A stretch of DNA of 64,000 nt, from the NCBI GenBank assembly GCA_004022145.1, contig RCNU01000003.1, one strand, 5' to 3'. Below, piece by piece: positions 12,047-41,495 of the stretch. The notes beneath the pieces were generated by a model. That model did not search any database. It had not been told where the DNA came from and saw only the letters and a program-made list of their open reading frames with translations. Positions within the stretch are counted from its first letter, which is position 1. Each line of letters opens with the position of its first letter. The position numbers were made by a program, and so were the translations under genes. This DNA comes from Paecilomyces variotii. Its lineage: Eukaryota.

Positions 12047-13388
12047 ATGGTCGGTCGGTCGTTGTTCGCGCCTCAAGCCCTGCGCTCCAGACGGTTCTTC
12101 TCGACCACGCGCGCCGTCAATGCGGACTTTACTCATGCGGTACGTCTGGCAATTCTCCCCGTTTGTTGGGCATTGTGTGAATTATAGCTAATAGCGCACT
12201 TCAGGTCATTGGAGCTGGAGTAGTAGGCCTTGCGGTTGCTCGGCAATTGGCCTCGAGAGATGGCACGTCAACGATACTGTTAGAACGGCATGGAGCTGTG
12301 GGGATGGAGACAAGTAGTCGGAATTCAGAAGTATGTCCCTTCGCCAATTCCTGTGTGTGTGTGTGTGCTTGCAGCTAACATCACGGCGTGCATTGTAGGT
12401 CATCCATGCTGGTATATACTACCCCGCAGATTCCCTGAAAACGAAGCTCTGCATCAAGGGTAGAGAGATGTTATACGACCTATGCGAGAAGCGGGATATT
12501 CCCCATCGCAACACGAAGAAATGGATCGTTGCCCAAAATGAAGACGAATGGAAATCCTGTCTCAGAGTCCACGAACATGCGCAATCGATAGGTGTACCGA
12601 CACGACTGGTCAGTCAAGAGGAGGCGAAGCAGAGAGAGCCAGAAGTCAGAGCGCAAGCGGGCATCGTGGAGAGTTTGACTACAGGAATTGTGGACAGTCA
12701 TTCGTTAATGACATGCTTACAAGGTGACTATGAGAATCAGGGGGGAGATGTCGCCCTCCAAACGGCCGTGACTAGGATCGAGCCCTTGAATTCCGGCAAA
12801 GATGGATATCGGATATGGGCACGATCTGAAGACGGGTCTGAGGATTCGATCACAGCAGAAACTCTCATAAATAGCGCAGGAAATGGGGCTTGCTATATCA
12901 ACAACTTAGTTCTCCCCGAGGAACGACACCGCACGCCGTATTTCGCGAAGGGGACGTATTTCTCTTACTCGGCATCTTCCCCCAGAACTTCGACGTTGAT
13001 CTACCCGGCCCCGATGCCAGGACATGGTGGGCTGGGTACACATCTCACTTTGGATCTGACCGGACGCATACGATTTGGACCTGATGTTGAATGGATCAGC
13101 GACCCTAATGATCTAAAACCGAGTGCTGCCAGGCTTCAGGAGGCACTACCTCAAATCAAGGCGTATTTGCCCAACGTCAACCCAGAGGCAATCGATCTGG
13201 ATTACTGCGGCATCAGACCGAAATTGAACCCGGGTGGTGGAAACACCGCTGGGAAGGGCTTTCAGGACTTCATCATTCAAAAGGAAGAGGGGTTCCCCGG
13301 TTTTATCAACTTATTAGGCATTGAGAGCCCTGGATTGACGAGTGCCCTAGCTATCGGAAAGATGGTCGAGGGTCTTCTGTATAAGTGA
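12047..13388 (+). CDS. Mitochondrial L-2-hydroxyglutarate dehydrogenase (L2HGDH/LhgO family FAD oxidoreductase)
   Basis: Arg-rich presequence; [12 protein letters not shown] Rossmann motif; '[17 protein letters not shown]'; '[10 protein letters not shown]'; 'FGPDVEW'; 'GIESPGLTS'. Confidence 0.88.
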
Positions 13389-13642: not shown

Positions 13643-15472
13643 TTACGCAACAACGCCGTTCTGCTTTAGCGTCTGGATCTTGTCTTTATTCAATCCCAGA
13701 CCTTCCAACACCTCGTCAGTATGCTCACCTAGAAGAGGTGGTGGTGTCCGAATACTCGGGTCTGCATTTGAATATTTGACTGGTGTGTTGATCACCTTGA
13801 TAGGACCGCAGACTGGATGGTCGATTTCCTTGACCATACCGCGAGCCTTGGCTGTAGATATATCTATATTAGCAATTTTTTTCCATGACATATAGGATTG
13901 AACCGGTGGGATGCATCAACTTACTATGTTCGTGATTGAACGTGCCCATAACGTCGTTAACAGCAGCATAGGGCATTCCCGAGCCTTCGAAAATATCCAG
14001 CCATTCCTGAGTAGTCTTTTTCGTGGTCTCAGCCTCGATGAGACCTTCAAGCTCTTTTCGGTTTTTCACACGGTCATTGTTGGTGTTGTATTTAGGGTCC
14101 GTCTTCCATTCTGGTTTTCCTAGTTTGTCGGCCAAGATCCGGAAGAGTTTGTCGTTGGCACCGCCGATGAAGATGTCTCCGTCGGCAGTTTTGAAGCCTT
14201 GATAAGGGACCACAGAGGCTGGAAAACTCGTCAGCTATTCTGTTTTGACAAATGCCGTGGTTAGAAAGAGACTCTCTACTTACGGTGTGCTGTCCCCCAT
14301 CGTCCAGAGTCCTTCTTGCCACTGATGAGCACTGAGCTGCCCATATTAGCCAACGTAGCCGTCTGGCAGTCGCTCAGGCATACGTCAAGATGCTGACCCT
14401 CCCCAGTGTGCACTCTATGCAGCAGCGCCGCCATGATTGAGTTGCACGCATAGAGTCCCGTCGTCAGATCTGTCACTGCCACTCCCACCTTCACGGGCGG
14501 ACCATCCCGTTGTCCTGTCAAGTGCATCAAACCGAACTCCGCTTCGACCATGACATCAAACCCTGGCCGATTGCTGTAGGGCCCGGTCTGACCGTATCCC
14601 GTGATACTGGCATAGATCAATTTGGGGTTGATCTTCCGAATCGTCTCGTAATCCATGTTGTATTTCGCGAGGGAATTGGGCAGGTAGTTCTCGACAAGCA
14701 CGTCGCAGGTCTTTGCCAGTTCATGAAGGATTTCGACGCCCTCGGGATGGGCGAAGGAAAGTCCTAGGGACTTTTTATTTCGGTTCACCTGGGAGAAGCC
14801 AATTAGTTCCCATGTATATTGTTGGATCCAGGACGAAAAGAGGTTTGGCTTACAGAGAGATAATATGCACTCTCTCCGGGACCTTCCCTTCCATCCAGAT
14901 ATGCAGCAAATGGGGGTCCCCATGCTCTTGTATCGTCTCCTCGTATGGGATGCTCGATTTTAATAATCTCGGCCCTTTATCAAATCACGAACACAAGTCA
15001 GCAAAGTCCACAGAATCCATCGCGACAGAGAATAAACATCAATACACAAAGCCCCACGCCACTGCAGAAGAAGAACAATTCGTACAGAACGTATCGACAT
15101 CAGGGATTCATGGACATCCATACCCCAGATCACCTAGTATTTGTGTACAATATGGCTGCGGGAATCGATGAACCTCAAGTTAGCTTCAGAGCTCACGATT
15201 TACTCGCCCGCATTTTCTCCGCATTCGCGAACAACGGAGATAAAAGCGAATTTCTAATGAAGTATTTTTGGAAGGACTCCTCATACCCCAGCTAGAACTC
15301 TGCTCATGTCCAAAACCCGAATTCCCGCCAGCGGTAACCTCTTATTCGTCGTCGTCGTAGCATGTTGACCTGTTGCTGTTGTCGCGAGTCCTCGATTCGA
15401 GCTCCAACGTGCGGAGATGTAGGCGGATCTTCTGCCGACAACCGACAGTGACCGCAGAGGGTGAGAGTACAT
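13643..15472 (-). CDS. Family III (CaiB/BaiF) CoA-transferase, SUGCT-like, with a mitochondrial-like presequence
   Basis: '[27 protein letters not shown]', '[10 protein letters not shown]', 'VNRNKKS', 'DVLVENYLP', '[13 protein letters not shown]', 'PPLLGEHT'. Confidence 0.9.
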
Positions 15473-16013
15473 CTTGGAATGGGTGTAGGAATTGAGGTCG
15501 GTCCAGGAAATAATTCCTCTCCAATCAATTCATAAGTGCTCTTCTTATAACTTGGTTAAAGAGGAACGAATGAATCCGTCTTGTCAATAATCAAAAAGTT
15601 CAAAGTGTATGTTTTTTGACTCTCTCCGCGCAGGCCCTTGCTAGGAGAGCTGGAGGCCCCACGGCCGATGAAGAAGAGCTCGGCGGGTCTCAATACTTAG
15701 GAGTCTCGAAGACCCCACATGAGACACGAGGCTGAATTCAGGTGGACGAAGGATGGAGAGTGAATATTCTATCATCAACGGTGGGAATAATGTATAATGC
15801 AATTTATGATAATATGCTGCAGAGTTGTTGTATTACTTGATGGATTAAGATGAACTAGGGATAAGACTGGCAGCTTATGTTGGGAACCTGATTTAACTCC
15901 GTTATTGGGCGTACAATAGCTACTTGACGTATTTAGCTATCTACCTTAACATGCATAATTCCTCTTGTATCCGGACTCTAACCCAAATTGCAAAATGTAA
16001 GCTCGTACGGTCT

Positions 16014-18143
<2,130 letters not shown>

Positions 18144-18719: not shown

Positions 18720-20525
18720 ATGAAGGCGAAGGTCAGTCCGCTGTTCAGCCCCATATGGCGGCGGAACTTCTCCGCATCCTCCGCCCAGAGGGCGATCGAC
18801 AAGGTCGTTCCCTCCGCCGCGGAGGCTGTTAAGGACGTGAAGGGAGACTCTACGCTTCTCGTGGGAGGATTTGGTTTCTCCGGTGTTCCCAACACGCTCA
18901 TCAATGCCCTGCGGGACAGGCCCGAATTGAAGGGCTTCACCGTTGTCTCCAACAATGCTGGCATGCCAGGAGTCGGCCTGGGTGAGCAACTTCTGGAGCG
19001 AACGTGAATCTAGAGGATATACACGGCTGACAGCAAGAAATGTAGGCCAACTCCTTGAATCCGGTCAGATTAGCAAGATGATCGCTTCCTTCATTGGCGA
19101 AAACAAGGTCTTCGAGAAGATGTACCTCACCGGAGATCTGTCTCTGGAGCTCACTCCTCAAGGCTCAATTGCAGAGAAGTGCGCTGCTGGTGCTGCTGGT
19201 GTCCCCGCTTTCTATACCCCTGCTGCTTATGGAACTATCGGTAGGATCCAATGGCAAACCCAGTTATTTCTTACAATCAGGCTGACCGTCGAAAGTGCAA
19301 ACTGGTGAACTCCCTGTCCGCTACAACAAAGACGGAACTGTCGCAGAAAAGTCGAAACCCAAGGAAACCCGTGAATTCAATGGCAAGCAATACGTTCTGG
19401 AAGAGGCTATCTTCGGTGACTACGCTCTGGTCAAGGTCCACAAGGCAGACAAGCTTGGTAACTGCCAGTTCCGCAAGGCCATGAACAACTTCAACGAGGC
19501 TATGGGAAAGAACGCCAAGGTTACTCTCGTCGAGGCCGATCAGATCGTCGAGGTTGGCGAGATCGCTCCCGAGGACATTCATCTGCAGGGTATCTACGTC
19601 GACAAGGTCATCCAGAGCACCGAGCCCAAGAAGATCGAGAAGTACACCTACGCCAAGGACCCGAACGAGTTGCTGAAGGCCGGTAAGTCACTTCCGCGCA
19701 CCTGTCTTTATCCCTTGACTGACGTGTCTTCGTGTATCAGGCAGCGGAGATGCCACTGCTCGCCGTGAGCGTATCGTCCGTCGTGCCGCTAAGGAGTTCA
19801 AGGACGGCATGTACGTGAACTTGGGTATTGGAATTCCTCTTATCGCCCCCTCTTTCCTGCCCGAGGGTGTGGAAGTCGTCTTGCAATCTGAAAACGGTAT
19901 CCTTGGACTTGGTGGTTACCCCAAGCCCGGCGAGGAGGACCCTGACCTCATCAACCCGGGTAAGGAAACCGTTGTTCTGGGCCGTGGCGCTTCTCTGTTC
20001 GGATCGCACGAGAGTTTCGGTATGATTCGCGCTGGTAAGATCGATCTCACCATGCTGGGTGCGCTGCAGGTCAGCCAGTACGGAGGTAAGTCTTTCACCC
20101 GCTTCTCGGCCAACTTTTACCCATGACTAACGATTATTAGATCTTGCCAACTTCATGCTTCCCGGTAAAGTCAAGGGTATTGGTGGTGCTATGGACCTGG
20201 TTGCGAACCCTGAGAAGACCAAGGTCGTCGTCACCATGGTATGTACCTATCTACACAAACACACCCCCTTCTTGAACAAAAGTCTAACAACCAGCAGGAG
20301 CACGTTGATAAGAAGGGCAACCCCAAGATCCTTTCTGAGTGCACCTTCCCCCTGACCGGTCCCCGCTGTGTCTGGAAGATCATCACCGATCTCGCCGTCT
20401 TTGATGTCAGCCCCACCGAGGGTCTGACCTTGAGGGAGTTTGCTGAAGGTGTTAGCGTTGACGAGATCAAGGCTAAGACGGCCGCTCCCTTCAAGGTTGC
20501 AGATGATCTGAAGCCAATGCTTTAA
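18720..20525 (+). CDS. Succinyl-CoA:3-oxoacid CoA-transferase (SCOT / 3-oxoadipate CoA-transferase type, fused A+B domains), mitochondrial-like presequence
   Basis: '[12 protein letters not shown]', 'VSNNAG', '[11 protein letters not shown]', 'YVNLGIGIP', catalytic 'LQSENG', '[21 protein letters not shown]', 'CTFPLTG'. Confidence 0.93.
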
Positions 20526-22839: not shown

Positions 22840-23388
22840 TAGTGCATCATAAAAGGGACATCGCTCCGAAAGGATTCGACTCTATAGCTCTCATGAGATC
22901 AGCTTCGGTGTATTGTGGTACTACGCTTGCAGTAAACCGTAGACAGTATGTATGCATGACCAACTCCACAATTCTCCTTAGTATTCTCTCACATAATACG
23001 TACTGTGCGTTGTTGGCAAAATTTGGAGTAATAATCATGATTGTTTATAGTTAGTTGTAATCTTGGCTGAGAGCTTGGAGAACGTGGGGCTGTCAACGCT
23101 TACGCCCCACGGGCAGTGACCGCCAGTAGTAGAGGAGCTTAGTGGGCGGCTAAGTAGATACCCCGTATTGAAGAGTCCGGACTGCAGTACCTAAATTAAC
23201 CAACTCCGTAATGTATGTACTACTATGTAGTTGCAGGAGCTGCGGAGTTCACTTAGTAAAGATTCACTGGTTTATTTTACCTTCTTTCTTGAACGCCAAT
23301 TTCGATCATCACGACGGGTAATTTCTCGTTTCCACCATTTTGAGATTTGGAGTCTCTCTTGTATAGATTGCAGAACACCACCGCAGGG

Positions 23389-24834
23389 ATGATCGGCAAA
23401 GCAGCGAGGGAGGTCCTCAAAAAATCACCACAGGACATTGTCGTCTTGTCCTCGGTGCGGAGTCCGATTGCCAGGGCCTTTAAGGGCGGGTTTAAAGATT
23501 CATGGCCGGAGGAGATCTTGATTCCGGTATGATTAAGTATCTCCGTCTTCTTCGAGGTTATCTTTATGACAAAAAAAAAAAAAAAGAAAAGAAGCGTTTT
23601 CTAACATGCGAAAAATCACAACAAAATAGGTCATGCAAGCCGCCGTAAAGAAAGCCAACATCGAACCAGGCCAGGTCAACGATGCGATGATTGGAAATGT
23701 CCTCTCTGAGCTGGGATTCGCCAAAACGGGACGAATGGCATTGAATGCGGCTGGTTTCCCTAACTCGACGACATTTCACACTGTGAATAGACAATGCTCG
23801 AGTAGTTTGCAGGCCATCACGCATGTTTCGCACTCTATCATGGTCGGTCAGCTCGATGTCGGGTTGGCGGGTGGTGTTGAGAGCATGACGCGCAACTACG
23901 CCTCGCGCGGTATTCCCGTTGATGTGTCTCCGACGCTGAAGGAGTCGCCGGTTAAGGATGCGCGGGATTGTATTTTGCCTATGTTGAAGACGTCGGAGAA
24001 TGTTGCTCAGCGGTATGGGATTGGACGTAGGGAGCAGGATGAGTTTGCCGCCGAGAGTCAGCGTCGGGCTAGCGAGGCGCAGAAGAGTGGGCGGTTTGAA
24101 GATGAGATTGTCCCGATCACGGCGCGGTGGATTAACGAGGAGACCAAGGAGGAGACTACGAAGTTGGTGACTTTGGACGAAGGTATTCGACACGGTGTGA
24201 CGGTTGAGAAACTGGAGAAGTTGAAGCCGGTGTTGGAGGGAGGAGCCAGCACGGCCGGGAACTCGTGAGTAGCTGGCATTGCGCTGATGCGGAATTCTAT
24301 TCTGTGTCCTTGAGATCTCTAACGTGCAGTAGGTCTCAAATTTCTGACGGTGCCTCTACTACGATCCTTGCGCGCCGTGCCTGGGCTGATGCCCATGGGT
24401 TGAAGCCGATCGGACGTTTCGTGGGCACGCAAGTCGCTGGTGTCGCTCCGGACGAGATGGGCATTGGACCTGTACCGGCAATCCTCAATCTCTACAAATA
24501 CTGCGGCGTTGAGCAGAAGGACATTGATATCTTCGAGCTGAACGAGGCCTTTGCTAGCCAGACTATCTACTGTATCCGCGAGCTTGGACTGGACCCTGCC
24601 AAGGTCAACCCCAACGGCGGTGCCATTGCTCTGGGCCATCCTGTCGGCGCGACTGGAGGCCGACAGACTGCTACTCTGCTTGCTGAGCTCCAGAAGCAGG
24701 ACAAAGAGCTCGGAATCGTCAGCATGTGTGCTAGGTGAGTTGAACTTGTAATTGGTTTGGTCGTGAGCAGCTACTAACACGCGCTGCAACACAGCACTGG
24801 TATGGGTGTGGCGTCTCTCTTCATCAGGGAGTAG
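23389..24834 (+). CDS. 3-ketoacyl-CoA thiolase (possibly 3-oxoadipyl-CoA thiolase)
   Basis: Catalytic '[11 protein letters not shown]', 'GGVESMT', 'STAGNSSQISDGA', 'ELNEAFA', '[18 protein letters not shown]', 'SMCASTGMG'; ends SLFIRE*. Confidence 0.93.
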
Positions 24835-25400
24835 GCATAGCCACCTAGCTATCCACTTGGTCTCCGCTCGCACAGATGCGTTGTTGGTTCCATGATTCCA
24901 TCTTTCTCACCGCGAGATCGTTGCGGGACTCGATAACAGAATCGATGGTGAGGCTCGGGGAGGAGCTTGGCGGATGGAGAACACAAGAAAAGGCCCCACG
25001 AAATAGCGCGACGAAGTTATGCGGGGAAGCTTGGGTAACTTGGATACTGTCAGTAATTAATTATTTAATATTGACTTAGACTACTACTTATGTAACTTAC
25101 AGACAACGCAGAAATGTGAGAGCTGAAAGCCCCACACTAAGTTTAGAATTGAGCTGTCGACGATGTGGTGCAGAGCAAAAGGTCCATGTGCGTTGTAATA
25201 ATACTACATCTGGTCAATTATTGTAGATGTGCTTTTCCTTCCAATCAAAGAGCTATTGGTTCAGATCGTCGCGCGTCAAGTGCTGCTATAGAGACATCCC
25301 TGATCACGCGTTGGAGACGCTCGCTCGCTAGGTCCTGCCAGCGCAACGACAGCAACCAACGACCCAGCTGTGTGAGATACATTTTCGAGAATTGATCAAC

Positions 25401-26917
25401 ATGTCACTCTTTGCGCAATTGCTGCGACACTCACAACGGGTCTCTGCTGTTCCTCGAATTCGCATTGCCAGCCAGAGAAGACTCATGGGTTCAGTCAGTG
25501 CTATCGACTCGGGCATCTTCCGGACGCTGTTCGGCACGGAGGAGATCCGGAAGGTATGATGGAGATTCTTGATGATTTCTTTCTTTCGTTTCTACGTTCA
25601 TGCAATGCTGATGAGATATACTTCTTCAAGGTGTTCGATGACAAGGCCTACATCCAACGCTGTGTCGATGCGGAAGCAGCACTGGCACGAGCGCAATCGC
25701 GGTGCAATGTGATCCCTCCGGAGGTCGGTGACATGGTGACTTCCAAGGTGGCCCAGTCAGAGCTGGATCTCGAGCGACTACGACACGAGACGGAAATCGT
25801 GGGTTATCCCATCCTGCCTCTCGTCCGACAGCTGTCGGCCATCTGCGGCGAGGAAGCGGGCAAGTATGTGCACTGGGGCGCGACAACGCAGGATATCATG
25901 GACCTTGCCAGCGTCCTACAGATGAAGCAAGGCCTGGCCATTGTGGAGCGCTTGCTAAAGGACGTGATAAAGACCTTGCGAGATCTCTCGGAGAGGTACA
26001 AGGACACGCCAATGGCGGGAAGAACCCATCTGCAGCATGCGCTGCCTGTTACTTTTGGTTACAAGTGCGCCGTTTGGCTGTCTGGTTTCCAGAGACATCT
26101 GGAACGGTTGGAACAGCTCAAGAGCCGTACGCTGCTTGTCCAATTTGGCGGTGCAGCTGGTACCCTGGCGTCGCTGGGAAATGGCGATGACGGTCTCAGG
26201 GTGCGGAGAGCGTTGGCTGAAGAATTGGGCCTGGCGGACCCTTCCATTACCTGGCACGTTGCGCGCGACGGTGTTGCGGAGATCGTCAACTTCCTGGCCC
26301 TGATGGGAGGTTCGATGGGTAAGCTGGCGCTTGATATCATCGTCATGTCCTCCAACGAGCTCGGCGAAGTGTCGGAGCCGTTCGTCCCTCACCGCGGTGC
26401 ATCTTCGACGATGCCGCAGAAGCGGAATCCTATCTCCAGCGAAGTCATCCTGGCAGCCTCCAAGATTCTGCGCTCTAATGCTGGGCTAGTCCTTGATGGC
26501 ATGGTAGCTGACTTTGAGCGTGCCTCGGGGCCCTGGCATCTCGAGTGGGTGGCGGTGCCGGAGAGCTTTGTGATCGCGGTCGGTGCCCTTTTCCAGACAC
26601 ACTTTGCGTTGTCCGGTCTGTCTGTGCACAGCAAGCAGATGCTTGACAACCTGCACTCCACCAAGGGCCTGATCGTGGCAGAGGCCGTCATGATGGGCAT
26701 GGCCCCGTATGTGGGTCGCCAAAACGCTCACGACATTGTCTATGCAGCGTGCAAGGAGAGCATCGAGAAAAACCTAACGCTTCTCGAGTGCCTGCTCTCC
26801 AAGGAAGAAGTCACGTCGAAGATGGAGGAAGAGCGTCTGCGCGCGCTCTGTGACCCTGTCAACTACCTGGGAGCATCACAGCAGATGGTCGACGATGTTC
26901 TCGCGGTGAAGTACTGA
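25401..26917 (+). CDS. PcaB (3-carboxy-cis,cis-muconate cycloisomerase)-like class II fumarase/aspartase-superfamily lyase
   Basis: Exon 1 MSLFAQLLRH...MGSVSAIDSGIFRTLFGTEEIRK; intron 25554-25630; 'HWGATTQDIMD', 'GRTHLQHA', 'QFGGAAGTLASLG', signature 'GASSTMPQKRNPISSE', 'ERASGPWHLEW', 'DPVNYLG'. Confidence 0.85.
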
Positions 26918-28034
26918 GAATTGTAGATACCTGAGCGATTTAGTATTGCATTTATGGGATAGCATAAAGATTGAGTTTTGTCTATATCTACCATCTACAT
27001 GATTTTGCTCAATTTCCCAGAATTATTTTATCTACCTAGGTAGTTAGTTACATTCTGGTCGATTACTTAATCTTAGTTGTCCCAATTGTTAATTATCACC
27101 ACGTGAAAGGCTTTCAGAGAGCCTCATCTATAGCTCGAATTACCCCGCAAAGTTCGGTTCGTTCAGCACCAACAACATATCATTGATATCTAGGTAACCA
27201 GTAACTGGAACTGTGACTGGCAGTGGAGCACGGCCGTTCCATCAACTACCTACCTTTAACCCAAACCATCATCGACCTGCAATACTGAACGGCATCCATG
27301 GATTCTGTCAAGGGACCACTTCGCCATGACATCAGTGGGGTCAAGAGAAGTGAGACAATCTGGCCTGATTTCCAACGCAGATCCAGAGACTGTGGCAGAT
27401 AACGTCTACAGCGTTGGTAGTCTCACGTTGGAGACGATGGAGCCGTCTTCTCCCACCGTATCGAAGGAGGTCTTCGATTAACGCAGATCCTGTCTATGTA
27501 CGCAAGTCCGGCATGAACCACTCTCCTAGCTGGCTTCTGCCTGCGTAACTAATCAAGTGGGTGATGCAGTACATCGCTTGGATGGCTTTACATGGTGATA
27601 TCGCCCCTCCGGTACGGGCCAAAAGATCAAATACTTATTGTACGCCTAGGCGATCATGCATCTTGCTCAATTACAAAACCCTCAAATGGCGACTTGACCC
27701 CATCTACACGCTTTTCCTCCACTTGTTACTAACTCATGGATATGTCTTTGTGCTTCATCCACCATCGTTCTCCACATGCCAGCCCCGCAAGATACTCGGA
27801 GCTGAAATGTCGCCGCGGGTGCGAGAGTGGGCCGATATAGTTCTCTAGAGAGTCTTTGCGCTCAAAAGACTCATGTAATAATAATTATTGAACGGACTTG
27901 AAAGATCGGAACGAGGACCAAACTTTTCGACTGTCTTAGCCTTTCTGCCTTTGAGTTGTCAGGACGGACAAATATCTCCTTGTTTAATATACTTTGCTCT
28001 ATTTTGTATTATTCTACTGCATCCAACAACAAAC

Positions 28035-29941
28035 ATGCCAGCACCCCCGATCAAAGAGAGGAAGCCCGTGACGGACCTCCAGAAGGTGTTTCACTATACA
28101 GATACTCAGCGCCGCAAGCCGACGCGTGAAGAAGATCCGTATGAGTACCAGGCCGGTTGGGGGAACCGTTTCCAGTCTGAAGTTATCCCGGGTACGCTCC
28201 CTGCTGGCCAGAACAACCCGCAGGAAGCTCGATTCGGCCTGTACACGGAGGGTATCACATATTCGGCCTTTGCGGCTCCTCGCCATGCCAACTTTAGTAC
28301 CTATCTCTACCGTGCTAGAGTTGCTGCTGCTCACCGTATGTTGTGTACAATGTCTACCTGTCTATGAAGATGGTTCTGGCTGATCATGATTCCTATCAGA
28401 TGGCTACAAAGCAAACATTGAAACAAAATCGCATATCGAGAACTGTCTACTCACGCTGAACCCGAAAGTTGAGACACTTGCTGAGCAGGCTGAATGGCTG
28501 CCATTCCCGCTTCCCAAGGAGGATGAGAAGATCGACTTCGTTGACGGGTTGCACACCCTGGGTGGGAGTGGCGACCCAAACTTGCGCGAAGGGATTGCGT
28601 TGTATGTGTTCATGATCAACGCGGATATGGACCATCGGGCATTCTGCAACACGGACGGTGACTTCCTGATTGTTGCGCAGCTGGGCAACCTGGACATCCA
28701 GACGGAGTTGGGTAAGCTCTTCCTGCAACCCGGCGAGATCTGTGTGATCCCGCGTGGAATCCGCTTTGCTATCCGACGTGCCCCTGGCCATAATGTTGCT
28801 CGTGGCTATATCACGGAGATCTGGGGCTCCATCTGGGAGCTCCCTGACCTGGGTCCGCTGGGTGGTCACGGGTTGGCTAATCCACGAGACTTCCTGTATC
28901 CTGTTGCTTATATCGATGACGAACTACACGAGGACTGGAGTATCGTCAACAAGGCGAATGGAAAATATAATGCCATTCAACAGGATCATAGTCCGTTTGA
29001 TGTTGTGGCGTGGCATGGTAACGCCGTTCCGTACAAGGTGCGTCCATTCCCTTCTTTTCATCATTTCCATCAACGAGTTACAAAACTAATTGTACTGTAG
29101 TACGACCTCACCAAATTCGCCTCTCAAAATGCCACATCGATCGATCACACCGATCCATCCGTGAACTGCGTCCTGACAGCCAAGTCGCGAGACCCTAATA
29201 CTCCTCTGGCCGACTTCCTCTGGTTCGGACCGCGATGGGACGTGGCATCCAACACGTTCCGTCTGCCATACTTCCACAGGAACTCCGCCACGGAATTCCT
29301 GGCCTCGCTGTACGGTAACGGATTGGGTCGATCAGATGAGTTCCTCCCCGGCGGTGGCAGCGTGGAGATCAGCCACACGCCGCATGGCAACTTTAGCGAA
29401 GATTATGTGTGGGAGATGCGCGTGCAGGAGAATGAGCCGCGGAAGATTTTGGAGAGTGAGTATTATCCCGTCGTCCGGTTTCTAAGCCAGACGAATGTCC
29501 TATATCTGGAGAATGGGAGAGACTAAACGCATGTACAGACCAAATGACAATCATGGTCGAAAGTAGCCGCACGTTCCTGTTCACGGAATACGCGCGCTCG
29601 ATCTGCGGCACGTTCAAGAATCAGGGCACCGACCCGAAGGTGTGGGATGTTCTCCCGGTGAGTCTTTTTAACTCTCCCTCAGAGCATATACCAGGGAATG
29701 AAAATAAGTTCTAACGGCTTGCTTTCAGGACAAATTCTCATCGTATCCGAACATCAAGGAGATCCTGGCGCAAGTTAAGGCCGACAAGGCGGCACAGCGA
29801 GCGCGGCTGGACACTTACTATGATGATGAGCGGCTGGCGCAGGTCGCGGCGCAGGGACATGTCAAGAGCAAAGAGATTGATGGCAGCGCGGTGGCCAATG
29901 GTAGGAATGGCACCAATGGACATGCTGTGGCTGCTGTATAA
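28035..29941 (+). CDS. Homogentisate 1,2-dioxygenase-like cupin dioxygenase (divergent HmgA paralogue), multi-exon
   Basis: 'YQAGWGNRFQSEVIPGTLPAGQNNPQ', 'GLYTEGITYSAFAAPR', 'PGEICVIPRGIRF', 'LPDLGPLGGHGLANPRDF', 'SPFDVVAWHGN', 'IDHTDPS', 'FRLPYFHRNSATEF', 'HTPHG'. Confidence 0.88.
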
Positions 29942-31233
29942 TCTGGATTATTAGGCATAATTTATTTGATCATATTTCATTTCATTGTCTCTGTATCCGG
30001 TTTCCCGTCACGGTAGGTAGCTAGGTACCTAGGTAGTTATGTATCTATGAACCACGCGAGTAGATTAATTACCTAGTAGTAGCAACATAAGGAAAGAAAC
30101 GAACGCACGTGGAACAGATTTATTATTTCTTTAAGTCTTGTCATACCAAACTCCTGTCCCCACCTGATTCAGAATCTATAAGATCGGCCTTCTTATGCCT
30201 ATTCTGAAACCCATCTATCTCACCGACAAGACTTCGGCCCACGCAGGCGATACGAACTACCGTGGCCGAAACGATGGTGGTACGAGAGATACGAGAAGAA
30301 TATTCCACCTGCCCAATCACAAATCATAGAAACGGGTCTTGGTCAGCGAGACTCGTCACGGACTTGTCACAAGATCCACCGTTGGACCGAACACCGTTCG
30401 TTGAGTTCAACGTTGTAACTCGGGAGTCCAACGGAGTCGGTCCAGCAGGGATGGAAAGGTCTTGCTGGCTACCGTTGCTATCATGAGTAATTAATTATTC
30501 CTCATTGACTGACTGACAGATTGACTCGCTCGATGTGTGTGAGTCTGTGAGATGCGAACGCCACAAATGCCGGAGAGGCGAGAAGAAAAAAAAGCCACCA
30601 TGCGCTCGAGCGGCTGCGCAGATTGGTGATCATTGGCCGTGATTCGATTTCCCCGTGGGGTAAATATTAACTAGCAGACGAGCGACTCTACGCTAGAGTA
30701 CCAATACAGGAATTCAGGCTTCCTGCTAACGAGTTAATTTAGTTGCTTTAACTAGCAATGGGTTGGTGAACTTCCTCACTGACGACCCCACCTCAACAGG
30801 TCGGCTACAAGGCTCGGCTTAACCCCCCGGGCTGCTTTAGCCGTCAGAATCCAGATGCATTGGCGATGATCGTCCGCTGTGCTGGAACAAGACTGAGACT
30901 GCTGGGACGATCTCCCCGGTAAGCCCGGATACAAAACAGTTTAGGGCGGGCGCACTTTGCTGGCCGGGCTGGGCGCGACTGACGGCCTTTTTCTCGTGTA
31001 GTCGGGGACGATTTACGCCCATTACGCCCATTACGGTCACCAGGACACGAAGAAAGCCAAGCTGAAGCTTTTCTCTGGCCCCCCAAGGACGGAAGACGTC
31101 TCTTTCCCCTCTCCGAACTTTGCTTTCCCCTCCTTCTCCAATGCCCTCCGCCTAAGTGTATAGCGGGTAGTTGGACGATGCTCCTGGCCCGGTCCCTTTG
31201 CTGCCCTTTCCTCGCATCATCGCGAGAGTCGTC

Positions 31234-34190
31234 ATGGTCTTGAGAAAGTGTACCATCTGCGATCGCCGGTTCAATAAGACAGAGCATTTCAAGCGTCATG
31301 AGCGTTCACGTATGTGGTTTGGTTGCTTGATACATGTTTCTCCGCATTGCGGATCGCTGACAGGTGTATATACAGACACCAAAGAACGACCGTATGAGTG
31401 CAATGTATGTCACAAACGATTCTCCAGAAGGTAAGTCCGCAGGACTAGTTCCCCACGTGCAAAATTGATCTTATCAAATTTTCCGTCTGCGATGTAATAA
31501 TAATATGTGCTGATCGCGTTCTACAGTGACGTTCTGAGCCGGCATGCCAAAGGCCATATAGCGCAGGCTGCAACAGCCACTGCCAACGGGGCAATGAACG
31601 GGAAACCGTCCGGGACCGAATCCATCCCCGATCAAAGGCCCTCGGCCGTCAATATCACCCCGTCGACGGCTAATCCAAATGATGAGACGCCGCGTCTGCT
31701 GCCGGGCCTGCCACCGGAGACGCAACGCCTCCCTAATCTTCCCCCGACTCCGCGGGATGTGCCAATATCTGCCAATGGGATGCAATCGACGTCGTTGGAC
31801 TTCCTGGCTGACATCTCAGCCCATCATGCCCGTACGGAGTCGGATATCAATCCCATGATGATCGATGAGCAGCAGCCGTATTTCGGGTGGAATGAGGTGA
31901 CGCCGCTCAATCCACCGGAACATGCTTCGCAGCGTGGAGTTGCATTCGATGCTATGCACAACGACATACTCCAGTTTTGGCTGGAACCCAGGGGAGACAG
32001 TGTTTCTCGTCAGGGTTCTCTTGATTTGATGAGAGATACCAACTTCGGGTTGGTTGGGGAAAACCTGGCACTCTCCCCGGAAAGACATCACCGGCACTCG
32101 ATAGACACGACTAAATCTGGTGACAATATCCCAAATGAGCGGTTCGCCAAAGTCGAACGCTGCTGGCTGGCTCCTTCTAATACCGTGGGTCGGTTAATGA
32201 ACACGTTATGGCGCGATATGGCGCATAGTGATCTGGACAATCTCTTTTCTGTCCACAACTTCCAGCCCTTGGGGCATTATTCGGACGGTCCACAGGGGTC
32301 AAGACACGGCCTAGATGAGGAGTGTCGGATGCAGCTGCAGGCGGTTTTTGGCATGGCGCCGTCAACACTCTCGCATATTAACTCCCCGGGAAACGAAGCT
32401 TTATCTCCAGCAGCGTCAGCTTCCGGTGGCTCTGCGCCTACGTTCCCACCAGCGGAGATCCTGGACATGGCATTGGACCTGTATTTCCGCCATTTTCACA
32501 GGCTGGTTCCATTCGTCCATCTACCGACATTCTCCGCAAAGAAGGCACGATTGCCTCTATTGTTTGTGATGTGTCTTATCGGAATGATTATCTTGGGAAC
32601 AAAGGGGACAACAAGCTTTGTGGCAAGGTCCTTTCCGGTAAGTGCTTATCTCGTAATAGCATCAGTCGAGTCGCAACTAACGGGAAGCAGGTGGTCTTCG
32701 AAAAGGTCAGTGCTGAACTAGCCAAATGCTCTCTGGGCAACGGCAAGCCAGCAGGGATCATGACAACGTTTGCGACGGCCTTTCTGTTCCTTAATCTAGC
32801 AGCGATGACAGGGGTGCGTTATTGCGAATCTCAATGGCCTAGTAGCGATGCTGACTGAGTCCAGGAGAAAGAACACTTGGAGCAATGCCAGATGCTTTAC
32901 GTGAACCTTATGGCGGTATGTGATGGTCTTTCCCCCCCTAGCTGTGATAACTGTGCTCATACTTCATAGGTCGCTCAAAGACACGGTCTGTTTACAGCCA
33001 ACGAAGGCCAGATACTCGACATGGCCCTGTTTGAAGCGGTGCCTGATCTTGACATGCGATGGAAGGCGTGGAGCCGGGTGGAGTCTGCTAAACGGTTCGT
33101 TCCAAGTTCCTACCTTAATGTATAAACTATAAACTAATGCCGGGACAGGTTGATCATAGGTCTACTGCTTATTGACTCCTGGTACTCATCCTTCCTGTCA
33201 ACCAGCCCTATTGTGGCGCCAGACTCGGTCCAGATCATATTACCCTGCAATGAGACGCTTTTCAGGGCAGGCTCGTCAATCCGGTGGATGCAGCTGATTC
33301 GTGGTGGGAAGCGCATTTTAATGCCCACTGTGACCTCACCGTCTGAAAACACGAGTCTTCCGGTATTAGATGCTCCAGTGGACGATTTCTGTATGCAGGG
33401 GATACTGGCGATGCTGCAGCTGCGGTTGTCAGAAGCGTATCATCGACTGCTGTCTAACCGCGCGAGCTATCCCTTTGCCCCATGTCATACGTATGCTATG
33501 GATGGTCGTGCGAGATGTTTACCCTCACTGCAGGTCGAAGTCGTTAAAAACTACGAAGAGATCCTCGAGAGGCTGAATCCCAACTCCATCATCATGTGGC
33601 ACTATATGTGCATGATGCTCTGTGCTGACATGCAGATATTCGATCTCGCAGCTGGACGTGCCGGGCCTTTGCCTGCACGCAAAGCACTGGACGATATTGC
33701 AGCTTGGTCTCAGACCACAGCAGCCAGAAGAGCCTGTCTACATGCGGCACAGATCTTCAAGTTCATGACCAACCGCAAAGCGTCGGACGATACTATGTTC
33801 CACTCGGTATTTGCGCTCTTCTCCGCTGCACTCGTCCTGGGCCTCTACACCTTCATGGTGCCCCATTCAGCGGAGACGCAGGTTGGCGCCACATCAGTTG
33901 AATTGCTGGAAGATATCGACTGGCGGCAAATTGGTGCTGAGGGTTTTACCAGCTTCATGGAACCACAGGGGAGCCAGCCATACGGTACAGCTGACAGTGA
34001 AGCCACGAATTTCATCCGCAACGGTGGCACGATATATATTCGTGGAGTCCCACATCAGGGAGGCTACCAGTCTGCGCGGCGCATCCTGCTCGACTATGCG
34101 GGACTTCTCAAAGACACTGGGAAGTGGAGCGTGCGGAAATTCTCCTACGTGCTGCACATTATGAGTGATGTGTTGATGGAGGTCGAGTAG
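31234..34190 (+). CDS. Two-finger C2H2 transcription factor with a fungal-specific TF domain
   Basis: Spliced fingers CTICDRRFNKTEHFKRHERSH-TKERPYE-CNVCHKRFSRSDVLSRHAKGH; 'LYFRHFHRLVPFVHLPTF'; 'WKAWSRVESAKR'; 'AARRACLHAAQI'. Confidence 0.9.
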
Positions 34191-37088: not shown

Positions 37089-38244
37089 ATGTCTCCAACA
37101 TACCGCATCGCATCTATCCCCGGTGATGGAATCGGCATAGAAGTCGTCGCGGCGACGATACAAGTGGTTGAGAAACTTGCTAGGACTCTTGGAACATTCA
37201 ATATTGAATTTACGCATATCCCGTGGGGAACTGCTTATTACAAACAACATGGCCGCTATGTCTCAGAAGACGTACTAGAGACGCTGCGCGGATTCGATGC
37301 GAGCTTGTTTGGTGCGGTTGGGGCTCCAGGTATGTTTTACTCTGTCTTCCCATGTTTAAATGCACATATTTTGTTTTTTTGCGAGTAAGTTAGCTGATCC
37401 ATGGCCAGACGTTCCTGATCACATCTCTTTATGGGGCCTCTTGCTGGCCATCCGTGGCCCATTGCAGCTATACGCCAACGTCCGTCCCGTTCGAACGTTC
37501 CCCGGGACAAAATGCCCGCTGAACACCGTTTCCGACGCAGGCATTGACTGGGTCCTCGTACGCGAGAATTCAGAAGGAGAATACTCCGGTCAAGGAGGCC
37601 GGTCACATCTCCACCAGCCATGGGAGACAGCCACAGAGGTAGCAATCTTCACTCGCGTCGGCATTGAACGAATCATGCGCTTCGCATTCGAAACGGCGCG
37701 ATCTAGACCAAAGCGTCTTCTGACGGTGGTTACAAAGAGCAACTCCATGCGCAACGGAATGGTGCTCTGGGATGAAATCGCTGCGGAAGTCGCCAAGGAC
37801 TATCCTGATGTCACATGGGATAAGATGCTAGTTGACGCCATGACTGTGAGGATGGTCGCGAAGCCACAGTCACTCGACACCATCGTCGGGACAAATCTCC
37901 ACATGGATATTCTTTCCGATTTGGCTGCTGCGCTTGCGGGTTCCATTGGCGTTGCGCCATCGAGTAATCTGGATCCGACAAGGAAGAATCCTTCATTGTT
38001 CGAACCAGTGCATGGAAGCGCTTTTGATATCACTGGCAAGGGAGTCGCTAACCCAGTTGCGACGTTCTGGTCTGCCGCAGAGATGCTCTCATGGCTAGGC
38101 GAGAAGGATGCGTCGAAGAAGCTTATGGATTGTGTTGAACGGGTCTGCGCTGCTGGCATCCTGACTCCCGATCTTGGGGGTAAAGCAACTACGCAGGACG
38201 TGGTGGATGCTGTTAACAAAGAGATCGAGGGCCTCTCTAATTAA
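37089..38244 (+). CDS. Tartrate dehydrogenase/decarboxylase / D-malate dehydrogenase (isocitrate/isopropylmalate dehydrogenase family)
   Basis: 'YRIASIPGDGIGIEV', 'FGAVGAP-DVPDHISLWGLLL', 'YANVRP', 'RENSEGEYSGQGG', 'VTKSNSMRNGMVLWD', 'FEPVHGSAFDI'. Confidence 0.9.
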
Positions 38245-39238
38245 CCAAGCCGCGTGGATTTACGTGCGTGTTGTAGATATTTTAGACCGCTTGTTTACGT
38301 TGCGCTGATTAAAATGTCACTTAGTAGTGCCACAAGTTCATAATGCGACACCATTAACGAACAAATCAAAGTCAAATAATAATAATGTCGAGTAGTAGAT
38401 AGACAGACTTGAAGAAAATACAGAAACGAAAGAAAAGTTCTTCGGGGATACTCCACGTCCTTCGCAAGATCCGGAATTCTTCCAGAAAACCTGGCAGGTA
38501 GGAACGGCCTAGAAAATCCCACTGCAGAAACATGCCACTTCGCATGCTCGAAGTTCTTACAGCAAGTAGAAACCTGAGTAGTGTTGCTCGTCAGCACTAT
38601 ATGTCTTCCGGGTACTGGTTTATCTGAATACGACTCTATTGATGATGTTGATAGGGATAATCTGCCTTTCTTTTTCGTATAATTGGTTGGTGATTCCGAT
38701 TTCTGCATTGAAAATTCGGAAACGGGACAGTCCACTTCAAGGCAAAGGTCTTTTTTTCAACAGTCGAGGCAGTTTCAATTACCAAACACAAGACATGGTC
38801 TACGGATGGTTAGTATATGAGACAATGGATTATCGTGTGTAGCCCTCAGTATGTTCGGATTGTGGGGTCGCTTGAATTATCAGCCGGTCGATCGGGAGCT
38901 AAAATATTACTATGAATTTTACTGTCATGAATATCTTTGTCTTGTCCATTCCTCCGCCATTGATTTCACTGGTCATATGTCTTAGTCCCTGACCGCATTG
39001 AGCCAGAATCATATCATAATAGTTGACTAGGTAGTCAATACTTCACAAGTCGTGCTGTACTGCTGACTCATCGTCGCCGACTGCTTCGAACAAATGATAA
39101 AACGATAAAACCACCAGAGAAGCCACGCAGTGCACGGATGATCGGATGATTGGATATCACAGCTCATAACGCAGATCCTGGTTGCCTTTTATATTCAGGG
39201 TCTTCTGCTGCCAAGCTGAACAGGATGCCTCGCCAAGC

Positions 39239-41495
39239 ATGGCGTCGTCAGATTTCATGTCTCATACCTCGGAAGTAGGATCCCTGACGACGCACTCGAA
39301 CGATGAGAGCCAGTTCGTCGGGAGTTCCAGCGGCGTCTACTTTATTAAAACGGTCAGACAGGCCTTTTCTCAAGGCGTTACACCGTCAAATGATGAGACA
39401 CAAGGGCAAGACTTTCCTCACCCGGAGGATACGATCATTGGTAGCGAAGACTCACCGTGCGAGAAACATCCTCCCACGGCTTACGGGACCCCGTACAGCA
39501 GTATAGATGCTGGGACTCGTCATCATCGCTGGGAGTACCATCCGGCCGTCACACAGGCCTTGGGAGAAGCTCCACCGCTTCAACAAGCGAAAGAATTGAT
39601 GATGATGTATTTCAAAGTCTGGCATCCGCTATTTCCGTTCCTCCATGGACCGACTTTTCTGCAGGAGATGGAGCTACTATACTCTACAAGCGGGGGTGCA
39701 TCATCGACTATAAATGTACAGTCAGAACATAAAAGTGCCTGCTGGACAACGATTTTTCAATGCGTTTTCAACCTCGCCAGTCTATTGAATCCAGGTGTCA
39801 ACCTACCGCAAGCGTCCAAAATCAAATCACCCACAAACATCCATACATTGTTAGGGTTGCTCGTCTACAGACATGACACTCCGGCTCTTCAGGCAATGCT
39901 GGCCGCGCAATTATATCTCCTAGCCACGATGTCACTTCGGACGGCGTCGACGGTAGGTGGCTGTATCCTTAGATCAATGCTTCATGCTGGCTTGCATCGT
40001 TGTCCGTTCCGTTACAAGGAACTTACCTGTCATGATCGTCAATTGCGAAAGAGGATCTTTTGGAGCGCATACGCTATTGACCGCTACCTGAGCCAGGCAC
40101 TGGGTTTGCCTCTTGGGATTCAAGATTCGGACGTTGACGTTTGTCTGCCGGGTGCACATGAGTTGCATAATCCGCTGTCCTCAAGCAGCATTGCACAAAC
40201 TGAAGCATCCCCTAATCGGACAATCCCAAAATCACCTATGCTGGAGAATGGACGGTCTGTAGGAAATCCATATCTCGGAAGGACTGAACAGAGCCCCCAT
40301 CCTCAACCTTCGAACGACGACTCTAATTGGCATCAAGAACAAAATAACCGAGAAGCTGCGCTGGCAAACTACGTTATATCTGGAAGATTGACTGGCCGAG
40401 CATTAGAGCTCTTCCACAAATCCATCCACGTCCGTTCCGTCCGACGCAGCTCGGTTCTCTTTCTGATATCCGATGTCCACAAATGGTGGAACGGACTACC
40501 ACCAAGCCTACAAGGAACGCCTCCTCCTAGGCGCAACTGCGAAACAAAATCCCCTGAAGCTGATGAACCTTTCGATCTGGGACCGTTCTTCACGGTCCTT
40601 TACCAGCATCTTATTCTCCTGATTAACCGACCATTGCTGTCTCTAGATACCTCAAGCCCGGACTTCTGCTCTGGACTTCAGACTTGCATTGGTGCAGCTA
40701 GGGGTATCTTATCCGCGTTACAGGCTCAGATAGACGGAGGCCAAGCGCTGTTCTGGCCGGGCTTCTTATCAGCAGCATGGATGTCGGGGTTGGTGATTGT
40801 TTTTGCTTGTCAACTTAAACAATACGTTCTTTCGAAAGGTTGTCAGTAAGTCTAGACCCTGCACTGATACCTCCTCTTACCCGCCAATTCATCCCTGAAA
40901 ACCAATTACTAACAATCACCCCAGAGAGATCAGCGAATGCCTCGACATCCTCAACTTGATGTCCTCACAATGGGATACCGCCAAGCAGTGCCATACGGCC
41001 CTTTCATCTCTCTTCCTAAAGATAAAACGCCAAAACAGCAACGACAACAACAATCCCAACAACTTACTACTCTCCTCAATTCACGACAACTTCACTCATC
41101 ACGCCCAACCCTCCTCTCCAACAACCATAGCTCCACCATCATCAAACACACCCACCAATCCTCACGATTACTATGACTTCCACAGACACAAGCGTCGAAA
41201 AACAGACCCGACGAACGATCCTTCGGATCAAAATACTCGATCTACACAGCAACAACAGCAATCCCTTCTTCTTCCTCCACCTCCTCTTACTCAGGCATAT
41301 AATAGTAATAATTACAACACCGAAACAACAGCATCCATAACTAACAATAACCCAACATCATGGAATCTAAGCGGTCTCGAAGATCTTCAATGGCCAGGTG
41401 GTTCTGAGTCTGCTACGAATTTTGATCTGAATATGACGGATCTGTTTCATGGGGATTGTTTGTTTGATTTATCGGGACCGTCTGCGGAGTCTTGA
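39239..41495 (+). CDS. Fungal-specific transcription-factor-domain protein with no visible DNA-binding domain
   Basis: 'FVGSSSGVYF', 'YFKVWHPLFPFLHGPTF', 'LRKRIFWSAYAIDRYLSQALGLPLGIQDSDVDVCLP', 'YQHLILLINRP'; one intron ~40846-40924; N/Q-rich tail; an upstream exon cannot be excluded. Confidence 0.8.

Follow-up and report, generated by a model that had tools for sequence, protein, structure and literature searches.

The canonical homogentisate 1,2-dioxygenase (HGD; EC 1.13.11.5; structures 1ey2/1eyb and 3zds/4aq2/4aq6) has a two-domain fold, an iron triad and an acid–base histidine, and its pathway context includes FAH and MAAI. A tyrosine in the active-site lid is described in a review as contacting the carboxylate of homogentisate (PMC11634970). 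The majority of fungi reportedly possess two or three HGD-like genes (PMC8336404), and a 2025 study reported several Pezizomycotina clades and inferred functional divergence among them (PMC12420386). One such protein, MhdA of Aspergillus niger, is annotated as a homogentisate 1,2-dioxygenase and is reported to cleave methoxyhydroquinone to maleylacetate methyl ester, which is reduced to 3-oxoadipate methyl ester and de-esterified by the neighbouring carboxylesterase OmeA, so that the route ends in 3-oxoadipate (PMC8336404). PcMHQD1 and PcMHQD2 of P. chrysosporium likewise cleave methoxyhydroquinone; according to the review, PcMHQD2, with Phe in place of the lid Tyr, gave no conversion of homogentisate, whereas PcMHQD1 still turned it over weakly (PMC11634970). 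The hydroxyquinol and methoxyhydroquinone routes are both reported to lead to 3-oxoadipate (PMC8336404, PMC10406623, PMC13094099), and in A. niger the 3-oxoadipate route is completed by the SCOT-type CoA-transferase KstA and the thiolase KctA (PMC10406623). Here, we describe an HGD-fold gene of Paecilomyces variotii, located at 28035–29941 on the plus strand of a 64,000-nucleotide stretch of contig RCNU01000003.1 (assembly GCA_004022145.1; the whole stretch is hereafter the window), whose product belongs to a fungal clade of its own and whose neighbours form a catabolic cluster conserved with that clade. Because HGD-like enzymes with substrates other than homogentisate (MhdA, PcMHQD1/2) are already published, the idea of such an enzyme is less new than the initial annotation of this gene assumed. 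In the literature searched (supplementary phylogenies lay outside that search), no description of the clade, of its lid and C-terminal features or of its cluster was apparent, and a search for six locus tags found no mention of them.

The interval 28035–29941 is exactly one coding sequence, running from an ATG at 28035 to a TAA at 29939–29941, in DNA of fungal character (about 50% G+C, short GT..AG introns). Its four introns, of 64, 63, 83 and 71 nt, are all GT..AG, and the spliced sequence reads as 541 codons with a single terminal stop. The product and a database protein annotated as a P. variotii hypothetical protein (P0001) differ at 4 of 541 residues. Pfam searches of exons 1–3 returned HgmA_N (E values of 1.5e-18 and 1.9e-72) and HgmA_C (7.6e-28). 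The features of the gene on which the following argument draws are these:

join(28035..28335, 28400..29037, 29101..29455, 29539..29657, 29729..29941), plus strand: HGD-fold dioxygenase gene, five exons, 541 amino acids
29146..29148, plus strand: codon specifying H329 of the 'DHTDPS' motif, which matches human H292 and P. putida H288 and is nearly invariant in an alignment of 61 sequences (A1)
29266..29388, plus strand: active-site and lid segment P369–G409, with the iron ligands H372, E378 and H408 and with G387, R390, E402 and H405, assigned from alignments and clade counts
29729..29941, plus strand: exon 5, encoding a clade-specific C-terminal extension with AlphaFold2 helices at 480–502 and 504–514, followed by a disordered tail

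The gene is intact and expressed. Contigs from one metatranscriptome, run X10, are spliced at 28335>28400, 29455>29539 and 29656/7>29728/9, skipping 28336–28399, 29456–29538 and 29657/8–29727/8, which correspond to introns 1, 3 and 4; no RNA contig in the metatranscriptomes bridged intron 2. Three food-fermentation metatranscriptomes (runs X2, X3 and X4) contained 13-kb unspliced contigs that are about 98.5% identical to the window, with 101 substitutions and 50 gaps over the 6.7 kb of 23300–29966. These contigs are probably DNA of a related strain inside RNA libraries and were excluded as expression evidence, leaving run X10 as the only source of spliced transcripts.

Residue equivalences were obtained from alignments to human HGD (1ey2), P. 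putida HGD (3zds) and the deposited structure 9pz4; the chain numbering of 1ey2 and 3zds is the same as the published numbers. The catalytic core is retained: H372, E378 and H408 align with the human iron ligands H335, E341 and H371, and the triad and the acid–base histidine H329 are invariant or nearly so across the 61 family members of alignment A1. The surroundings of the substrate site differ. The lid Tyr site (human Y350, P. putida Y346) is occupied by G387, the human K353 site by R390, the H365 site of the 'SLH' motif by E402 and the human M368 site by H405, and 'AFMFES' is replaced by 'TIMVES' at residues 435–440 (29547–29564). These substitutions are properties of a group of proteins. 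Among the 77 best database relatives, 70 have the motif without gaps, two lack it and five are gapped or truncated; in the 70 scorable members, the lid position is Gly in 66, Ser in three, Met in one and Tyr in none. In the same 70 sequences, the K353 site is always Arg, the H365 site is Glu (66) or Asp (4) and the M368 site is His in 67. The initial annotation had singled out a peptide in this gene, and it is real and lies in exon 3, at 29266–29388 (P369–G409); its reading of retained iron ligands and of the DH.DPS histidine, of a missing Tyr from 'Y(E/D)AK' and of 'TIMVES' in place of 'AFMFES' agrees with the alignments. Its further point, a Glu for the His of 'SLH', is a real change, but not one special to this gene, because K353>R and H365>E are common to all three non-canonical fungal clades distinguished below, including one that keeps the Tyr. 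In total, 18 positions are conserved in the clade of the window protein (the window clade) as a residue unlike the one conserved in canonical HGD. Besides the lid Gly, the diagnostic positions include Y90, E132, T325, F411, E418 and I436.

An AlphaFold2 model built with 61 aligned relatives has a mean predicted local distance difference test score (pLDDT) of 89.7 and a predicted template modelling score (pTM) of 0.87. In Foldseek, run against a PDB copy that does not contain 9pz4, it matches 1ey2 and 4aq6 with target-normalised template modelling scores of 0.92–0.93 at 39–43% identity. The window protein has the two-domain fold, iron triad and acid–base His of canonical HGD. It differs from canonical HGD in about 30 extra N-terminal residues and in a helical C-terminal extension of about 45 residues, in addition to the changes of lid Tyr to Gly, K353 to R, H365 to E and 'AFMFES' to 'TIMVES'. 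The extension, at about residues 472–515, is conserved and helical according to the AlphaFold2 secondary structure and the alignment; its motif, LPD(K/R)FS...VK.DK...YY.D, is aligned throughout the window clade and is not found in the other clades. Within the window clade, proteins of Aspergillus multicolor (P0069) and A. mulundensis (P0073) form a sub-branch in which the lid is rebuilt and either shortened or lengthened, and lacks the conserved Arg. Both species also have standard window-clade copies (P0035 and P0036), which suggests that the sub-branch arose by one more duplication and that its function changed again.

A scan of 1.84 billion representative sequences returned 3,809 relatives at E values of up to 0.001. 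From these, a tree of 91 hand-chosen rows (tree 1, with 12 fragmentary or frame-shifted rows dropped) was computed with IQ-TREE in quick mode under LG+G4, with support from the Shimodaira–Hasegawa-like approximate likelihood ratio test (SH-aLRT) only and with midpoint rooting. One half of the tree is canonical: it comprises 36 rows, and every one of the 23 that show the Y(D/E)(A/G)(K/R)...LH signature is among them. Apart from it stands a fungal super-clade of 54 rows (SH-aLRT 100) that contains three clades: one of 21 rows from ascomycetes and basidiomycetes with a 'G.YGGRSD' lid (support 96), the window clade of 23 rows (99) and a clade of 10 rows with 'ARIY...GGRS' (100), which pairs with the window clade (pair support 99), the pair being sister to the 'G.YGGRSD' clade. 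In a second tree of 67 rows (tree 2), the window clade again falls on one side of a branch with a support of 99. The separation from canonical fungal HmgA that the initial annotation had expected is thus seen in both of these quick trees, as a clade with a support of 99 inside a super-clade with a support of 100. In agreement, the window dioxygenase scores 452.9 bits against the NCBIfam hmgA model TIGR01015, below its equivalog cut-off of 510.75. P. variotii has a second HGD-family paralogue of 499 amino acids (P0122) in the 'G.YGGRSD' clade, to which the window protein is about 52% identical. Members of the window clade come from Pezizomycotina and at least one budding yeast. A protein atlas gave only clusters labelled 'homogentisate 1,2-dioxygenase', and most window-clade members bear that annotation.

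The 'G.YGGRSD' clade probably holds the known methoxyhydroquinone dioxygenases. MhdA and PcMHQD would then belong to the same super-clade as the window protein, a placement judged indirectly, and would have K353>R and H365>E in common with it. The clade that fits them keeps the lid Tyr and lacks the extra C-terminal helix, whereas the window clade has the Gly and the helix. The best solved relative by sequence is 9pz4, a protein of 496 amino acids deposited as 'homogentisate 1,2-dioxygenase' (421.9 bits; human HGD scores 383.5). The lid Tyr is missing from it too, but its lid sequence differs from that of the window protein, and in tree 2 its look-alike P0253 is placed among the basidiomycete 'G.YGGRSD' members (support 97). 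Our literature search found no published paper on 9pz4 and no structure paper on a methoxyhydroquinone dioxygenase.

The genes around the dioxygenase gene were examined by a Pfam scan of stop-to-stop open reading frames of at least 110 amino acids between 14 and 45 kb and of at least 130 amino acids elsewhere, a scan in which short exons could be missed and for which mostly minus-strand shadow frames were submitted in the thiolase region. Housekeeping genes at about 11 kb and 42.7 kb flank the catabolic cluster region. Its genes are as follows:

25401..26917, plus strand: lyase gene (Lyase_1/ADSL_C by Pfam), PcaB/Tad1-like, of the fumarate-lyase superfamily, with exons at about 25401–25553 and 25628–26917
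23389..24738, plus strand: thiolase gene of the degradative acetyl-CoA C-acyltransferase type, at least three exons, start approximate, TIGR01930 on two exons
18720..20525, plus strand: fused 3-oxoacid CoA-transferase (SCOT/KstA-like, family I), several exons, Pfam CoA_trans on three open reading frames, NCBIfam pcaI/pcaJ-scoA/B
13646..15529, minus strand: family III CoA-transferase, several exons, Pfam CoA_transf_3
16014..17851, minus strand: flavoprotein like vanillyl-alcohol oxidase (VAO) and eugenol oxidase (4-phenol oxidase family), Pfam FAD_binding_4 and FAD-oxidase_C
31171..34190, plus strand: gene with a C2H2 zinc finger and a fungal-specific transcription-factor domain, by Pfam
12181..13388, plus strand: DAO-family flavoprotein, L-2-hydroxyglutarate-oxidase-like (NF008726, 141 bits, below the cut-off of 299), at the cluster edge and of uncertain membership
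21.2–22.8 kb, plus strand: phosphotransferase-like gene, between the SCOT and thiolase genes

The dioxygenase gene thus has a lyase, a thiolase and CoA-transferases as neighbours, in contrast to the FAH and MAAI context of canonical HGD. The lyase scores below every NCBIfam equivalog cut-off; its PDB matches are 3c8t, an unassigned 'fumarate lyase' (542.8 bits), the Ustilago trans-aconitate decarboxylase Tad1 (385) and bacterial carboxymuconate cycloisomerase (339), and the database protein P0375 maps onto it. For the family III CoA-transferase, the best NCBIfam model is succinate--glutarate CoA-transferase, far below the cut-off. The VAO-like gene matches eugenol oxidase and VAO in the PDB with E values of about 1e-51 to 1e-47, and in Eurotiales its product may supply the pathway with a para-substituted phenol. 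The C2H2 gene is likely to be the cluster regulator. The fused SCOT and the thiolase are of the same enzyme types as KstA and KctA; genes of these types are reported to be scattered in A. niger but are clustered with the ring-cleavage gene in the window. Neither an FAA_hydrolase nor a GST domain turned up in the scanned open reading frames of the 64-kb window, a scan that may have missed short exons. The earlier statement that no FAH or MAAI gene is nearby accordingly holds only provisionally, for the frames scanned.

The cluster is conserved and specific to the window clade. Several gene models from other fungi merge or line up its members. In the yeast Limtongia smithiae, the merged model P0064 has the order thiolase, lyase, dioxygenase and is colinear with window positions 23401–29821 at 65–79% identity, its thiolase part being colinear with the window thiolase. 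A Didymosphaeria model (P0015) joins a dioxygenase to a family III CoA-transferase, the window CoA-transferase gene being colinear with this model's C-terminal half, and a Thermoascus model fuses the C-terminus of the thiolase to the lyase. In Penicillium alfredii, Oculimacula yallundae and Scytalidium lignicola, the lyase and dioxygenase have consecutive locus tags. Metagenome contigs were also scanned with the clade alignment, which gave 80 loci in 59 groups at a nucleotide identity of at least 97% over the dioxygenase segment, 33 of them from the window clade (at least 60% identity to the query) and 26 from other HGD clades. Among the groups with enough flanking sequence on the contig to be testable, the partners were found as follows:

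Lyase within 4 kb upstream on the same strand: window clade 16 of 23, other clades 0 of 13
Thiolase: window clade 14 of 20, other clades 0 of 9
SCOT: window clade 12 of 15, other clades 0 of 7
Family III CoA-transferase: window clade 10 of 16, other clades 0 of 7
Regulator homologue beside the dioxygenase: window clade 16 of 18, other clades 0 of 7
VAO-like gene beside the cluster: window clade 2 of 12, other clades 0 of 7

The VAO-like gene was seen in loci L095, L126 and L127 and is not found in most other lineages. In locus L097, an Fe-ADH-family gene lies between the SCOT and thiolase genes; among solved structures, 9ph0, 'MAR1', is the closest to it (124.5 bits), and its weaker matches include annotated maleylacetate reductases. 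Fe-ADH homologues occur in 12 loci, from 11 window-clade groups, and in none of the other-clade loci. A mitochondrial carrier gene follows the CoA-transferase in six loci. A carboxylesterase gene was found beside a window-clade dioxygenase in L097 only, and there is none in the window.

These observations suggest a function. With moderate confidence, we propose that the gene product is a functional non-haem Fe(II) ring-cleaving dioxygenase with the HGD fold that is not HmgA and that opens a substituted p-hydroquinone other than homogentisate within a conserved catabolic cluster. An Fe-dependent enzyme with a substrate other than homogentisate was also the proposal of the initial annotation, and it gains support, at the level of sequence, from the separate clade, the TIGR01015 score, the loss of the lid Tyr, the presence of P0122 and the neighbouring genes. 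A ring-cleavage enzyme combined with a reductase-like enzyme, a SCOT and a thiolase follows the logic of the hydroxyquinol and methoxyhydroquinone routes, not that of homogentisate breakdown, and therefore points to cleavage of a p-hydroquinone to a maleylacetate-type product. The activity, the substrate class and the order of the downstream steps that we infer are as follows. The dioxygenase would cleave a substituted p-hydroquinone next to a hydroxyl-bearing carbon to yield a maleylacetate-type enedioic beta-keto acid. A maleylacetate-reductase-like enzyme, which is clustered in other lineages and in P. variotii would have to be encoded outside the window cluster, would take this ring-fission product to 3-oxoadipate or a close analogue. 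The SCOT-type CoA-transferase would then activate the resulting acid, and the thiolase would split the CoA ester. This lower route, through maleylacetate reductase, 3-oxoadipate, SCOT and thiolase, is the one described for MhdA and PcMHQD and is implied by the cluster in window-clade relatives. The PcaB/Tad1-like lyase and the family III CoA-transferase would perform a step outside the known methoxyhydroquinone or hydroxyquinol routes. We suspect an undescribed substrate or lower step because these two enzymes, which have no role in the published routes, are nevertheless the most tightly linked partners.

The closest alternative is that the window protein is an orthologue or isozyme of methoxyhydroquinone 1,2-dioxygenase (MhdA, PcMHQD1/2) that cleaves methoxy- or dimethoxy-hydroquinone derived from guaiacyl or syringyl lignin units. 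The protein does share its fungal super-clade with the putative MhdA/PcMHQD clade, and the cluster partners of its relatives (maleylacetate-reductase-like enzyme, SCOT and thiolase) are exactly those of the lower methoxyhydroquinone steps as reported (PMC8336404, PMC13094099). Moreover, formation of methoxyhydroquinone from vanillate is reported for P. variotii (PMC12388069), the L097 carboxylesterase gene, 9 kb from the dioxygenase gene, resembles omeA next to mhdA, and the lid Tyr is also absent from 9pz4, whose look-alike P0253 is among the basidiomycete members of the putative MhdA/PcMHQD clade. However, the window clade is separate, with an SH-aLRT of 99, from the clade that fits MhdA, although the latter was itself identified indirectly, and P. 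variotii already has a copy in the 'G.YGGRSD' clade, P0122. The reported mass of MhdA-His, 55.5 kDa (PMC8336404), agrees with that of tagged section Nigri 'G.YGGRSD' proteins (55.4–55.6 kDa) and not with that of the A. niger window-clade protein P0007 (61.7 kDa), an argument softened by the fact that omission of the last exon from the gene model would lower the mass to about 55 kDa and that read-through of intron 4 would give about 489 amino acids (open reading frame 29460–29714). A. fumigatus, A. oryzae and P. chrysogenum are reported to have MhdA homologues; no member of section Fumigati or section Flavi and no P. rubens is named among the 77 window-clade matches, whereas both A. fumigatus and P. 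rubens appear by name in the 'G.YGGRSD' clade, a comparison that is again soft because cluster representatives hide the names of their members. A carboxylesterase gene accompanies only one window-clade locus, so that the clade lacks the conserved counterpart of the mhdA/omeA pair, and the conserved lyase and family III CoA-transferase are cluster partners without a role in the methoxyhydroquinone route as published. On balance, we regard this alternative as unlikely.

Two other functions were weighed. The protein might be a second homogentisate dioxygenase that feeds a route independent of FAH and MAAI, in which maleylacetoacetate would be reduced, activated with CoA and cut twice by thiolysis. 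Such a role would be compatible with the full catalytic core and with the reported weak turnover of homogentisate by PcMHQD1, from the sister super-clade (PMC11634970), and a beta-keto-diacid such as reduced maleylacetoacetate would suit SCOT and thiolase. It is made improbable by the absence of the lid Tyr in all 70 scorable relatives, given that the Phe variant PcMHQD2 is reported to be inactive on homogentisate (PMC11634970), by the score below the hmgA equivalog cut-off and by the placement outside the canonical clade. Alternatively, the enzyme might open a hydroquinone ring during the biosynthesis of a secondary metabolite, as ring-cleaving dioxygenases of other folds are reported to do in fungi (PMC11371914), and the gene is indeed clustered with a pathway-type regulator. 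The scanned open reading frames of the 64-kb window, however, include no polyketide synthase, nonribosomal peptide synthetase, terpene synthase, cytochrome P450 or methyltransferase, the partners are enzymes of central catabolism (SCOT, thiolase and a maleylacetate-reductase-like enzyme), and the same cluster recurs in several fungal classes, all of which render a tailoring function very improbable.

Several observations weigh against our preferred reading, the cleavage of a p-hydroquinone other than homogentisate within a catabolic cluster. Both trees are quick IQ-TREE runs with LG+G4, SH-aLRT support only, midpoint rooting and some hand-chosen rows, and the role assigned to the lid Tyr comes from the review PMC11634970 and not from primary papers. 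The literature search found no assay, knock-out or induction data for any window-clade member. In the window, there were no matches to a maleylacetate-reductase-like (Fe-ADH) gene, and the cluster contains no hydroxylase able to make the hydroquinone. The lyase is not directly upstream in seven of the 23 testable window-clade lineages (one of the loci counted as a miss, L124, has it 4.2 kb upstream), and three related groups (L088, L142-144 and L145) have the regulator only. Furthermore, the lyase family is broader than the dioxygenase clade, with A. terreus, A. wentii and A. japonicus among the lyase matches and not among the dioxygenase matches, and no HGD homologue was found in any of 80 bacterial lyase loci; the lyase may also have a part in some other pathway.

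The bacterial homologues of the lyase are 57–62% identical to it over about 425 residues and come from Bradyrhizobium, Pseudomonas, Burkholderia, Streptomyces and others, an unusually close identity between fungus and bacterium that may reflect gene transfer. The 80 bacterial loci contain no thiolase, SCOT or VAO homologue either; a family III CoA-transferase is present in two of them, and the lyase gene adjoins a sodium:dicarboxylate symporter gene in both of the two bacterial loci examined. These loci tell little about the fungal pathway. Identification of the lyase with NRRL3_00837, which is essential for protocatechuate use in A. niger, was ruled out, NRRL3_00837 being a 25-kDa AhpD-like protein.

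Other features of the locus were also noted. The 65–79% identity of the thiolase–lyase–dioxygenase block between a budding yeast and this Eurotiales fungus is high for such distant fungi and, with the colinearity in L. smithiae, would fit a horizontal spread of the cluster. The N-termini of the SCOT (18720–18830), of the lyase (25401–25484) and of the family III CoA-transferase (about 15400–15529, minus strand) are rich in Arg and Ser and look like mitochondrial presequences. The L-2-hydroxyglutarate-oxidase-like gene (12181–13388, plus strand), homologues of which are found in loci L124, L126 and L127, lies beside the family III CoA-transferase gene (13646–15529, minus strand), an arrangement that recalls glutarate/2-hydroxyglutarate metabolism, and the two genes may constitute a module of their own. 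Immediately downstream of the cluster is a tartrate-dehydrogenase-like Iso_dh gene (37360–38244, plus strand; TIGR02089, 399.7 bits against a cut-off of 470.4), which adjoins a second fungal-specific transcription factor gene (39170–41495, plus strand).

More tentatively, the clade and its cluster might represent a fungal central ring-fission pathway outside the eight that the 2026 FAMeDB survey lists (PMC13094099). In such a pathway, the hydroquinone opened by an HGD-type enzyme would be neither homogentisate nor methoxyhydroquinone, a step without counterpart in the known fungal routes would fall to a bacterial-like PcaB/Tad1-type lyase together with a family III CoA-transferase, 3-oxoacid CoA-transfer and thiolysis would follow, partly in mitochondria, and the whole cluster would have moved between distant fungi; taken together, we regard this as possible but doubtful. 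The fungal catabolism of lignin-derived and other plant aromatics is only partly mapped. To it, this locus offers a clade defined by a diagnostic Gly for Tyr in the lid and by a C-terminal helix, a cluster that comprises five to seven genes and has a regulator of its own, and an example that is expressed in a fungus amenable to culture and engineering. If the substrate were identified, fungal aromatic catabolism would gain a ring-opening intermediate or a new lower route, and this would also correct the blanket annotation 'homogentisate 1,2-dioxygenase' that most members of the clade now carry.

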